Positions 59,410 through 60,199 of a stretch of 64,000 nt of DNA are shown piece by piece. The DNA lies in assembly GCF_041886205.1 (NCBI RefSeq), contig NZ_CP169029.1. One strand, written 5' to 3'. The DNA comes from Escherichia coli (GTDB taxonomy: Bacteria > Pseudomonadota > Gammaproteobacteria > Enterobacterales > Enterobacteriaceae). The notes under the pieces are model-generated. The model was given only the letters and a program-made list of their open reading frames with translations. It had not been told where the DNA came from and made no database searches. Made by a program: the position numbers and the translations under genes. Each line of letters begins with the position of its first letter. Position 1 is the first letter of the stretch.

Positions 59410-59459
59410 TGACTTCATACTGTGATGTCATACTATTGATGTCATAAAGTGAAGTCATA
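59410..59459 (+). promoter_or_regulatory. Four direct iterons (TGAYKTCATA) overlapping a putative hicA promoter
   Basis: tgacttcata, tgatgtcata, tgatgtcata, tgaagtcata at 13-14 bp spacing; -35 TTGACT and -10 TACTAT candidates embedded. Confidence 0.5.
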
Positions 59460-59469
59460 AGGACATGCC

Positions 59470-59568
59470 ATGAGAACCAAGGTACAGGCTTTACGGAAGA
59501 AACAAAAAAATACATTGGATCAAATATTTAAAATTCCTGTTCCTCAAGGGATCAAGTGTCTGATATAG
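59470..59568 (+). other. 32-codon ORF with Shine-Dalgarno running into hicA in another frame (leader peptide or frameshifted N-terminus)
   Basis: ATG at 59470 preceded by AAGGA; encodes MRTKVQALRKKQKNTLDQIFKIPVPQGIKCLI; ends 13 bp inside the hicA-like ORF. Confidence 0.3.
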
Positions 59569-59744
59569 AGTCACTGGTTAAAGCATTAGGCGGAGAAATT
59601 AAGGAAGGAAGAGGTTCGCGTTGTAAGTTCATACTAAATATGAGCGTTGCGTGTTTCCATCGGCCTCATCCGTCGCCAGATACCGATAAAGGCGCTGTAG
59701 AAAGCGTGCGTGACTGGTTACTAAGTATAGGGGTAAAACCATGA
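59556..59744 (+). CDS. HicA-family toxin (type II toxin-antitoxin mRNA interferase), 62 aa
   Basis: GTG start; EGRGSRCKF ... FHRPHP ... GAVESVRDWL pattern resembles the HicA fold; stop overlaps the downstream start (ATGA). Confidence 0.65.
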   Translation: MSDIESLVKALGGEIKEGRGSRCKFILNMSVACFHRPHPSPDTDKGAVESVRDWLLSIGVKP

Positions 59745-60100
59745 TCAAACTGAAGACGCCAAACTCTATGGAGATTGCCGGGCAACCTGCTGTTATCACT
59801 TACGTGCCAGAACTGAATGCATTTCGTGGCAAATTCCTGGGCTTGTCAGGTTATTGTGATTTTGTCTCTGACAGCATTCAGGGGCTGCAAAAAGAAGGGG
59901 AACTTTCCCTGCGAGAGTATCTTGAGGATTGTAAAGCTGCGGGTATTGAGCCGTATGCGCGTACAGAAAAGATTAAGACCTTTACGTTACGCTATCCAGA
60001 ATCGCTGAGTGAACGCCTTAATAATGCGGCTGCGCAGCAACAAGTCTCTGTTAATACCTATATTATTGAAACACTGAATGAGCGTTTGAATCATTTATAA
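59741..60100 (+). CDS. HicB-like antitoxin with C-terminal ribbon-helix-helix DNA-binding region, 119 aa
   Basis: Translationally coupled to the HicA-like ORF; C-terminal SLSERLNNAAAQQQVSVNTYIIETLNERL is RHH-like. Confidence 0.6.
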   Translation: MIKLKTPNSMEIAGQPAVITYVPELNAFRGKFLGLSGYCDFVSDSIQGLQKEGELSLREYLEDCKAAGIEPYARTEKIKTFTLRYPESLSERLNNAAAQQQVSVNTYIIETLNERLNHL

Positions 60101-60156
60101 ATTTTAGCGGCGTACATTACGCAGAATATCTGCCTTTACAGGATCTATCTATGCAA

Positions 60157-60199
60157 CTGAACTTAATTTTATAAATTAAGTTCAGTTAATATCTTTTCT
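60157..60199 (+). terminator. Hairpin terminator after the hicB-like gene
   Basis: Perfect 11-bp stem ctgaacttaat / attaagttcag with 7-nt loop, followed by a T-rich run. Confidence 0.6.

Follow-up and report, generated by a model that had tools for sequence, protein, structure and literature searches.

The closest described relatives of the locus are the class 4 hicAB systems (Gerdes 2024, PMC10865869), which include those of B. pseudomallei (6G26) and of Y. pestis (HicA3-HicB3, 4P78). They have the same hicA-hicB order with overlapping genes, the same dsRBD-like HicA core, and promoter repeats that could serve autoregulation, and their structures were the best PDB fold matches for the models predicted for both proteins of the present locus. 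In contrast to class 4, HicA comprises 91 aa here with a conserved two-helix N-terminal extension, possesses a G-S-R instead of a G-S-H with the catalytic His, and shows a near-invariant H-x-P-H-P motif; in addition, the toxin gene is frameshifted in the window, by which we mean the whole 64-kb stretch of E. coli DNA that was analysed.

The HicAB system of E. coli K-12 (hicA/yncN and hicB/ydcQ; 6HPB) belongs to the same Pfam HicA family and shares the fold (TM 0.63, target-normalised) and the gene order, but is located elsewhere on the chromosome (1.51 Mb in K-12). HicB of K-12 uses a helix-turn-helix and not a ribbon-helix-helix (PMC10865869, PMC11594946). HicA of K-12 consists of 58 aa with His23 and gave no meaningful pairwise alignment with HicA of the window. 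A match of 13 columns obtained with hhalign (family alignment against K-12 HicA, probability 64%) paired the C-terminal helix of one protein with the N-terminal helix of the other and was rejected as a spurious helix-pattern artefact.

Long HicA/HicB pairs are also found in phages and plasmids (PHROG 8887 and 9151; Burkholderia phage ST79, Ralstonia phage Dina). They have the same overlapping HicB partner, and the phage copies of HicA are about 50% identical to the protein described here and full-length, including the N-terminal extension. A P2-like prophage in Serratia proteamaculans carries such a pair together with the same TGACTTCA operator-like repeats. In comparison to these copies, the E. 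coli cassette occupies a fixed chromosomal position with no adjacent mobility gene, and its toxin gene is a pseudogene in this strain.

In K-12 MG1655, exactly the same interval between the stop codons of yhhJ and nikR harbors the RhsB element (rhsB-yhhH-yrhC'-yhhI). The first-pass annotation had named rhsB, yhhH and yhhI at this site, to which yrhC' has to be added. The interval is rhs locus 9 of Jackson et al. 2009 (PMC2935791), and the RhsB element is an unrelated 6.7-kb polymorphic-toxin element which has no sequence in common with the hicAB segment (blastn).

Family assignment and the long form of HicA

The cassette is an ordinary HicA/HicB toxin-antitoxin module which is routinely annotated in E. 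coli by the RefSeq pipeline. The assignment of the two reading frames to the HicA/HicB families, originally made without database searches, is borne out by the profile matches in Pfam and PHROGs as well as by the folds predicted for both proteins and their annotation in RefSeq. In the profile search suggested at that time, both families were matched: a 62-aa fragment of HicA matched HicA_toxin PF07927 (E 8.1e-9, model positions 2-52 of 58), and the 119-aa protein matched HicB PF05534 (E 3.5e-15, residues 60-112). The product of the intact hicA gene (WP_001259385.1, 91 aa) matched PHROG 8887 'toxin' (E 7e-27) over residues 11-91 with the N-terminal extension included, and HicA homologues carry precomputed PF07927. 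Scans of both proteins with NCBIfam and PADLOC returned no curated equivalog and no defence-system model. The sequence similarity to HicA proteins in the PDB is marginal; a phmmer search with the 91-aa protein against PDB sequences found nothing, and the profile match had an E-value of 0.085.

According to the AF2 model of an intact orthologue (pLDDT 94; H30-39, E43-46, E51-56, E59-64, H74-86), HicA most probably forms a dsRBD-like alpha-beta-beta-beta-alpha core which follows a two-helix N-terminal extension. The Foldseek top matches in the PDB were 6g26, 1whz, 4c26 and 6hpb (TM 0.53-0.67, target-normalised), with weak E-values as expected for a domain of 60 residues. HicA of B. pseudomallei (6g26, TM 0.64-0.67) was the best match, followed by 1whz and HicA of E. 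coli (6hpb). Clustering at 50% identity divides the long-form subfamily into about 1000 clusters, and its members are distributed over chromosomes, plasmids and phages. In its N-terminal extension, which is modelled at pLDDT 94-97, the residues L16, F20, P23 and W30 show little or no variation, Trp30 being kept in 142/148 family representatives.

In characterised HicA proteins, the catalytic His is H24 (B. pseudomallei), H28 (Y. pestis) or H23 (E. coli) (PMC11594946). The protein described here carries Arg51 (G49-S50-R51) where this His would be expected in the turn (G-S-H) that connects beta1 to beta2, while the conserved Gly of BpHicA (G22) is present as G49. Position 51 is Arg in 144/148 subfamily representatives and His in 1. 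The register was derived from a profile-to-9svk alignment ('rGsr' vs 'RGSH', E 0.085) and from the alignment of 9svk to BpHicA, and the equivalence of the two residues is thus based on weak sequence alignments and not on structural superposition. Since Arg aligns with the catalytic His, RNase activity by the canonical mechanism cannot be assumed.

It is possible, although we consider it rather unlikely, that the long 'GSR' HicA-like protein is no canonical RNase toxin and uses another catalytic set (H64/H67/R51) or acts as a non-catalytic RNA binder; even the intact module may then behave unlike textbook HicAB. The prevalence of Arg51 points in this direction, as do the H-x-P-H-P motif and a D/K/G cluster, both nearly invariant in the subfamily, and the register is backed by matches in both alignment steps. 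In gonococcal HicA, moreover, the His equivalent to H67 is dispensable and the one equivalent to R51 is essential (PMC12297915). However, the residue equivalence depends on the weak alignments mentioned above, and a toxic HicA-like activity is in agreement with the fold and the G-S dipeptide, with the HicB partner and the order of the two genes, with the phage and plasmid contexts, and with the fact that E. coli has lost hicA repeatedly while keeping hicB. Literature searches found no experimental work on this locus or on the long, GSR-type subfamily, and nothing specific turned up on the hicAB study of ExPEC PPECC42. Papers on hicAB expression in O157:H7 do not state which hicAB locus was measured.

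The frameshift in hicA

The two reading frames with an ATGA overlap described in the first-pass annotation are present on the plus strand at positions 59556-59744 (62 aa, GTG start) and 59741-60100 (119 aa). The former had been regarded as the toxin gene, but it turned out to be only a fragment, namely the 3' portion of a hicA gene which encodes 91 aa when intact and is frameshifted at Trp30 here. The hicA pseudogene extends from 59470 to 59744 on the plus strand and has a length of 275 nt, compared to 276 nt (91 aa) for the intact gene. In the alignment to the intact ST2350 allele, it shows one gap and one SNP. The gap (alignment column 161; plus strand, 59558-59559) is a 1-bp deletion which converts the Trp30 codon from TGG to TG (AAGTGGTCT to AAGTGTCT), and the open reading frame of hicA is consequently interrupted at codon 30. 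Translation from the ATG at 59470 to the TAG at 59566-59568 yields a stub of 32 aa (MRTKVQALRKKQKNTLDQIFKIPVPQGIKCLI; plus strand, 59470-59568). The 62-aa frame on the same strand corresponds to the C-terminal dsRBD-like core without the conserved N-terminal extension. For the identical DNA of strain PT62, the RefSeq/PGAP label is "HicA family toxin, frameshifted". A programmed -1 frameshift at the site of the deletion was rejected as an explanation, as the codons ATC AAG TGT are without a slippery heptamer.

The module is therefore not an intact toxin-antitoxin pair here, as had been supposed, because hicA is frameshifted and the 62-aa frame is its remnant. It is very probable that the cassette has lost its toxin in this strain. 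A pair which still works would require translation of the 62-aa frame, either by internal initiation or by reinitiation after the stub, to give a minimal toxin checked by HicB. This frame spans the entire Pfam HicA domain, its product would contain the full alpha-beta-beta-beta-alpha core according to the model, and it is similar in size to the characterised HicA toxins (58-66 aa). The GTG at 59556 is preceded, at a distance of 4 nt, by a weak Shine-Dalgarno-like AAGGGA, and the stop codon of the stub overlaps the start region. Nevertheless, such a pair is improbable: the Shine-Dalgarno spacing is short, the start codon is a GTG, and PGAP calls hicA a pseudogene. Furthermore, the fragment is devoid of W30 and of the N-terminal extension, which is conserved over more than 1000 clusters and is confidently packed in the predicted structure. 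The allele is also rare, occurring in 9 of about 2076 carriers of the cassette among many other disruptive hicA alleles, as would be expected for a decaying gene. We infer that the 62-aa remnant is inactive.

Single-base indels are the commonest error of long-read assemblies, but a sequencing or assembly error in a truly intact hicAB is extremely unlikely: the deletion lies within a run of only two G, a linked upstream T/C SNP is common to the window and its 100%-identical relatives, and the frameshift must be a real allele because it is found in identical form in 9 complete genomes, which were deposited independently and come from different countries and varied hosts (pigeon, bear, frog, baboon, pig, cattle and human).

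The loss of hicA is not confined to this allele. The cassette occurs in 2076/5426 complete E. coli genomes (~38%), and a TAA stop at hicA codon 2 was found in 791 genomes (~38% of carriers). Other disrupting alleles comprise further frameshifts and 2-bp deletions. HicB, on the other hand, was the same protein accession in 5/7 annotated genomes checked. In E. coli, hicA has thus been inactivated repeatedly while hicB is nearly unchanged.

hicB, the promoter region and proposed regulation

The intact hicB gene (plus strand, 59741-60100; PGAP WP_000593555.1) encodes the predicted antitoxin and autorepressor of 119 aa. Its start overlaps the stop of hicA in an ATGA at 59741-59744, and this 4-nt overlap is kept together with the PF05534 partner in four unrelated contexts (chromosomal, prophage, MAG). 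The bicistronic order with the toxin gene first, the overlapping genes and the conserved partner are those of a type II toxin-antitoxin operon of class 4 hicAB. Beside PF05534, HicB matched PHROG 9151 'HicB-like antitoxin' (E 6e-13, residues 8-118) and PHROG 582 'Arc-like repressor' (E 1.3e-6), and residues 76-116 gave weak Pfam matches to ribbon-helix-helix families (Arc PF03869, E 0.018; CopG, E 0.022). A phmmer search of HicB against PDB sequences returned chance-level matches only, plus Arc at E 0.27.

The AF2 model of HicB (pLDDT 85) predicts an N-terminal domain consisting of a partial RNase-H-like beta-sheet plus helix (E9-12, E15-22, E27-32, E40-43, H46-67) and two C-terminal helices (87-99 and 104-118). 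Top matches in Foldseek were 6g26_B, 6u0i, 6hpb_B, 4p78_A (TM 0.58) and 2dsy (TM 0.62, rmsd 1.6), the best fold matches being HicB of B. pseudomallei, E. coli and Y. pestis. The C-terminus matched Arc (1bdv_B, TM 0.71, rmsd 1.9) and AtaR (6gts_C). Profiles and model together indicate that the C-terminal DNA-binding domain is most probably of the ribbon-helix-helix type, which agrees with what had been noticed from the sequence alone.

Upstream of hicA, a consensus scan predicted a sigma-70-like promoter (plus strand, 59409-59436; -35 TTGACT, 16-nt spacer, -10 TACTAT), which is identical in strains with intact hicA. The iteron-containing promoter of the first-pass annotation was recovered in the form of four operator-like repeats TGANNTCATA (TGAnnTCATA) at 59410-59459 on the plus strand. 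They start at 59410, 59423, 59437 and 59450 (spacing 13/14/13) and overlap the -35 and -10 elements and the likely transcription start. Only 6 matches to TGANNTCATA occur in the window, where 1.7 are expected, and 4 of them are located here. The 8-mer TGACTTCA/TGAAGTCA recurs 3-4 times, exclusively upstream of hicA, in three other enterobacterial loci/genera, and the copies in other genera form pairs 13 nt apart. The four repeats represent a putative binding site of the ribbon-helix-helix protein HicB.

Downstream of hicB, the left arm TTTTAGCGGCG of a GC-rich terminator hairpin, which follows hicB in O157-type strains, was found by junction comparison at 60103-60113 on the plus strand; the homology to these strains stops at 60111. 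The strong hairpin noticed earlier behind the reading frames is a perfect, AT-rich one of 15 bp with a 3-nt loop (60155-60187; z = -3.9), which together with its T-rich tail (plus strand, 60155-60197) is a candidate hicAB terminator. It lies within a 110-bp segment (60112-60221) which is not common to O157-type or empty-site strains. Rfam at a permissive threshold gave no RNA family between 59300 and 60300, so that the hairpin does not correspond to any known RNA element. A repeated (REP-like) element was also rejected, because an 822-bp query was found at a median of one place per genome.

In its intact form, which most carriers of the cassette possess, the operon would probably be transcribed from the one promoter and yield the 91-aa HicA and, via translational coupling, the 119-aa HicB. 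By analogy with characterised HicAB systems, HicA would act as a growth-arresting, RNA-targeting toxin which is neutralised by the N-terminal domain of HicB, while a HicB dimer would bind the four TGAnnTCA repeats over the promoter through its ribbon-helix-helix and thereby repress the operon. In the window, where the deletion in the Trp30 codon would end HicA after 32 residues, HicB alone should be produced as a functional protein, namely as an orphan antitoxin or repressor.

The yhhJ-nikR interval

The cassette is flanked on the left by yhhJ (plus strand, 58273-59397), which encodes an ABC transporter permease according to the PGAP annotation of the identical PT62 locus and whose blastn match to K-12 yhhJ ends at 59397. 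On the right, nikR (minus strand, 60220-60621) is convergent with hicB. The whole accessory segment has a size of about 826 bp (59396-60221) and is absent from 'empty-site' E. coli, in which yhhJ and nikR are 8 bp apart. In blastn against the empty-site strain DS566-1, matches were obtained for 58900-59395 and 60222-60700 only.

The comparison of this interval across E. coli genomes, as proposed in the beginning, revealed at least five states among those sampled, namely hicAB alone, hicAB with a PTS sugar island, the PTS island alone, the empty site, and rhsB. The view of a variable hotspot was therefore correct. The idea of a different module in place of rhsB was only partly confirmed. No sampled genome region (a sample and not a census) contained hicAB together with rhsB; however, a cassette carried by 38% of the complete E. 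coli genomes is not unusual, and in O157:H7 and other strains it adjoins a second accessory island within the same interval.

For the window itself, these findings are of little importance, as the cassette is a common accessory module in a decaying copy, and the yhhJ-nikR interval is a tidy example of a chromosomal hotspot. A further reading, which we put forward only tentatively, is that long-form HicA proteins constitute a mechanistically distinct class of toxins, and that HicB is kept in E. coli either in the role of an orphan repressor or as an antidote of the 'anti-addiction' kind against incoming phage- or plasmid-borne copies. The distinct class may be suggested by sequence features, namely the obligatory two-helix N-terminal extension, the Arg in place of the catalytic His and the H-x-P-H-P motif; the repeated inactivation of the toxin beside an unchanged HicB would fit either role of HicB. 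A HicA subfamily in which the histidine required by all characterised HicA RNases is missing offers easily testable biochemistry for specialists in toxin-antitoxin systems, and the E. coli population provides a natural series of independent hicA knock-outs, which is convenient for studying why orphan antitoxins persist.

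The frameshifted hicA gene between yhhJ and nikR

Between the stop codons of yhhJ (59397, plus strand) and nikR (60220, minus strand) lie 822 bp, which contain two ORFs of 62 codons (GTG start, 59556-59744) and 119 codons (59741-60100) overlapping in an ATGA, as described in the first-pass annotation. Its assignment to HicA and HicB was borne out by profile searches, in which Pfam HicA_toxin (PF07927) matched the 62-aa product (E 8.1e-9, model positions 2-52 of 58) and HicB (PF05534) matched the 119-aa product (E 3.5e-15); Arc/CopG ribbon-helix-helix matches to residues 76-116 of the latter were weak. 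However, the 62-aa ORF, which had been taken for the toxin gene, is the remainder of a hicA pseudogene that had been overlooked.

In a megablast search against 5426 complete E. coli genomes, the interval was matched in 2076, chromosomally every time. Strains PT62, LP5-1 and wlxctx60 showed 100% identity to the window, and the majority of the remaining matches were one base longer. The cassette is common in E. coli, already annotated by NCBI and not new, which the first-pass annotation had missed. In PT62, the NCBI pipeline annotates a 275-nt pseudogene with a start equivalent to 59470, and in ST2350 the same gene is intact (276-nt CDS; 91-aa protein WP_001259385.1). Pairwise alignment of the window with intact hicA showed only one gap: the Trp30 codon (AAG TGG TCT) is short of one G at 59558/59559, and therefore translation from the ATG at 59470 stops after 32 residues (MRTKVQALRKKQKNTLDQIFKIPVPQGIKCLI, followed by the stop codon). 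The 62-aa ORF is the rest of hicA, read from the first in-frame GTG. A slippery sequence suggesting programmed frameshifting was not seen. When an exact match to a 65-nt probe spanning the deletion was required, the allele was found in only 9 complete genomes, from pigeon, bear, frog, baboon, pig, cattle and human; this rare allele is hence genuine and inherited.

Nearly all of the 221 closest relatives of HicA in the database are 84-92 aa long, and in an alignment of 22 diverse members L16, F20, P23 and W30, which are located upstream of the Pfam domain, were invariant. When 1.84 billion cluster representatives were searched with the profile, 1008 clusters reached E ≤ 1e-10. In each of the best 150, the alignment runs from about position 8 to position 91 of the profile and therefore includes the N-terminal extension; among the top representatives, W30 is kept in 142/148 and P23 in 137/148. 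The AlphaFold2 model of the 91-aa protein has a mean pLDDT of 94 and places two helices at the N-terminus (residues 2-6 and 10-19, pLDDT 94-97), ahead of a core with the order alpha(30-39)-beta-beta-beta-alpha(74-86). Its closest folds in the PDB are those of HicA from B. pseudomallei (6g26, TM 0.64-0.67), T. thermophilus (1whz, 0.66) and E. coli (6hpb, 0.63), with TM normalised to target. Judged from this conservation and the model, the N-terminus lost by the frameshift is probably needed for HicA function. It is unlikely that the 62-aa remnant is made by internal initiation and acts as a functional toxin: the HicA core is intact in it and an AAGGGA is located upstream of the GTG, but the distance between the two is just 4 nt, and W30 and the conserved extension are absent.

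Lesions in hicA; intact HicB and its putative operator

A 301-nt probe over intact hicA matched 2073 complete E. coli genomes, 1038 of them with ≥ 99% identity, 242 with 95-99% and 791 with 90-95%. The last group represents a divergent allele, of which strain 639 and O104:H4 HUSEC2011 are examples; it carries a TAA at codon 2 (L008:806-900 in strain 639; locus L011 in HUSEC2011) and an exact 14-bp deletion removing one operator repeat, and is annotated by PGAP as a 76-aa protein with a CTG start. Its differences are limited to the 5' 200 nt, where they amount to about 12%, with none beyond, and this points to a recombination mosaic. Further, independent lesions in E. coli include a 2-bp deletion in an A-run in MLI114 (L009:871-1144), a duplication in OkiPb01683 (L010:798-897), where 26 bp at the start codon are repeated in tandem, and several truncated HicA products in the protein database (P0094, P0071, P0068, P0079, P0090), one of which, of 55 aa, occurs on 588 contigs. 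Taking the divergent allele and the other lesions together, hicA is compromised in roughly 40% of carriers, with hicB nearly untouched.

In the window, hicB is intact. Its accession WP_000593555.1 is common to PT62, ST2350, O157:H7, strain 639 and HUSEC2011; MLI114 encodes WP_000593557.1 and TW10690 WP_000593554.1. The HicB model (pLDDT 85) consists of four beta-strands and a long helix, followed by two C-terminal helices. Best Foldseek matches were HicB of B. pseudomallei, E. coli and Y. pestis and TTHA0281, and the C-terminal part was matched by Arc and AtaR. PHROGs hits were 9151 "HicB-like antitoxin" (E 6e-13) and 582 "Arc-like repressor" (E 1.3e-6).

The repeat-containing promoter and the strong downstream hairpin noted earlier were both found again. 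Upstream of hicA lies a sigma-70-like promoter (TTGACT-16-TACTAT, 59409-59436) with four copies of TGANNTCATA starting at 59410, 59423, 59437 and 59450, out of six matches in the entire 64-kb window (expected 1.7). A perfect 15-bp hairpin with a T-rich tail is located downstream (60155-60187), where folding is better than that of shuffled sequence (z = -3.9); no Rfam family matched in 59300-60300. We infer that HicB binds the four promoter repeats, which very likely represent its operator. Three homologous cassettes from other Enterobacterales, each within a 5.3-kb locus, were compared: one adjoining nikR on another Enterobacteriaceae contig (repeats at L012:2441-2489), one in a P2-like prophage of Serratia proteamaculans (L014:2429-2489) and one in Leminorella (L015:2431-2477). 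Each contains 3-4 copies of the 8-mer TGACTTCA/TGAAGTCA, mostly paired 13 nt apart, confined to 120 nt upstream of hicA and absent from the rest of the locus. A distant Azospirillum homologue possesses another repeat, GCGCTATCG, at the same place, as expected if operator and repressor co-evolve.

By analogy with the textbook arrangement, HicA of intact carriers would be a growth-arresting toxin acting on RNA and masked by the N-terminal domain of HicB, and the HicB ribbon-helix-helix would repress the promoter via the four boxes. In the window only the repression half of this circuit would be left, and HicB is expected to be made and to repress its own toxin-less operon.

Contents of the yhhJ-nikR interval and related cassettes

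As stated in the first-pass annotation, K-12 MG1655 carries rhsB, yhhH and yhhI, and also yrhC', between nikR and yhhJ. This Rhs element occupies the same interval as hicAB but is unrelated to it (zero shared sequence); the site is rhs locus 9 in Jackson et al. (PMC2935791). With a 1.8-kb probe across both flanks, the window architecture was found in 1490 genomes. Representatives support the proposed strain-variable hotspot: among complete E. coli genomes, the interval occurs in at least five states, namely hicAB only, hicAB with a 5.8-kb island (O157:H7, 33F4, TW10690), this island without hicAB (ST131), an empty site with a yhhJ-nikR gap of 8 bp (DS566-1) and rhsB-yhhH-yrhC'-yhhI (K-12). The island encodes a GntR regulator, PTS IIA/IIB/IIC, an FGGY kinase, HPr and a class II aldolase. 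Among the sampled genomes, hicAB was never seen together with rhsB.

Homology of the window to O157-type strains stops at 60111, within the GC-rich terminator hairpin that these possess 3' of hicB (TAGCGGCC...GCGCCGCTATATTTTT, L004:15203-15260). The window retains only the left arm (60103-60113) and then diverges; the 110-bp segment 60112-60221, holding the AT-rich 15-bp hairpin, is specific to the hicAB-only architecture. The junction (60103-60221) resembles a scar left by a deletion or a replacement.

On the other Enterobacteriaceae contig, hicAB is convergent with nikR, with an mgtE-like gene in place of yhhJ (L012:2501-3584); the linkage is therefore older than E. coli or has arisen twice. 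In Serratia proteamaculans CP045913, the long-HicA/HicB pair is a moron in the P2-like prophage (L014:1-3434), where it adjoins the GPA replication gene and is flanked by a Dam-like methyltransferase and Ogr/Delta. The pair is likewise encoded by Burkholderia phage ST79 and in about 49 records of Ralstonia phages.

The catalytic position in the long-HicA subfamily

Every characterised HicA requires the His of a G-S-H turn (H24 in B. pseudomallei, H28 in Y. pestis, H23 in E. coli, H36 in S. pneumoniae and H24 in the gonococcal protein; PMC11594946; PMC12297915). The "rGsr" of the family profile aligned weakly (E 0.085) to "RGSH" of PDB 9svk, the GSH of which aligned to that of B. pseudomallei HicA, where deposited structures carry H24A. 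In this weak register, the equivalent residue would be Arg51, so that the subfamily would differ from the characterised toxins by an Arg in place of the catalytic His. Position 51 is occupied by Arg in 144/148 representatives and by His in a single one. H64 (146/148) and H67 (144/148) form, with P66, an H-x-P-H-P motif that hardly varies; the gonococcal His corresponding to H67 was dispensable (PMC12297915). The subfamily thus agrees with the HicA family in sequence and fold, but not in the catalytic His. Several members are named 'hexulose-6-phosphate synthase' in public records (P0052, P0055, P0058, P0077), evidently a propagated misannotation.

No report on the chemistry of this subfamily was found in the literature. 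That a long HicA without this His, together with the repeated loss of the toxin while the antitoxin is kept, reflects something mechanistically distinct is possible, if rather doubtful; if true, such a reading of the long-HicA proteins would be of moderate interest.
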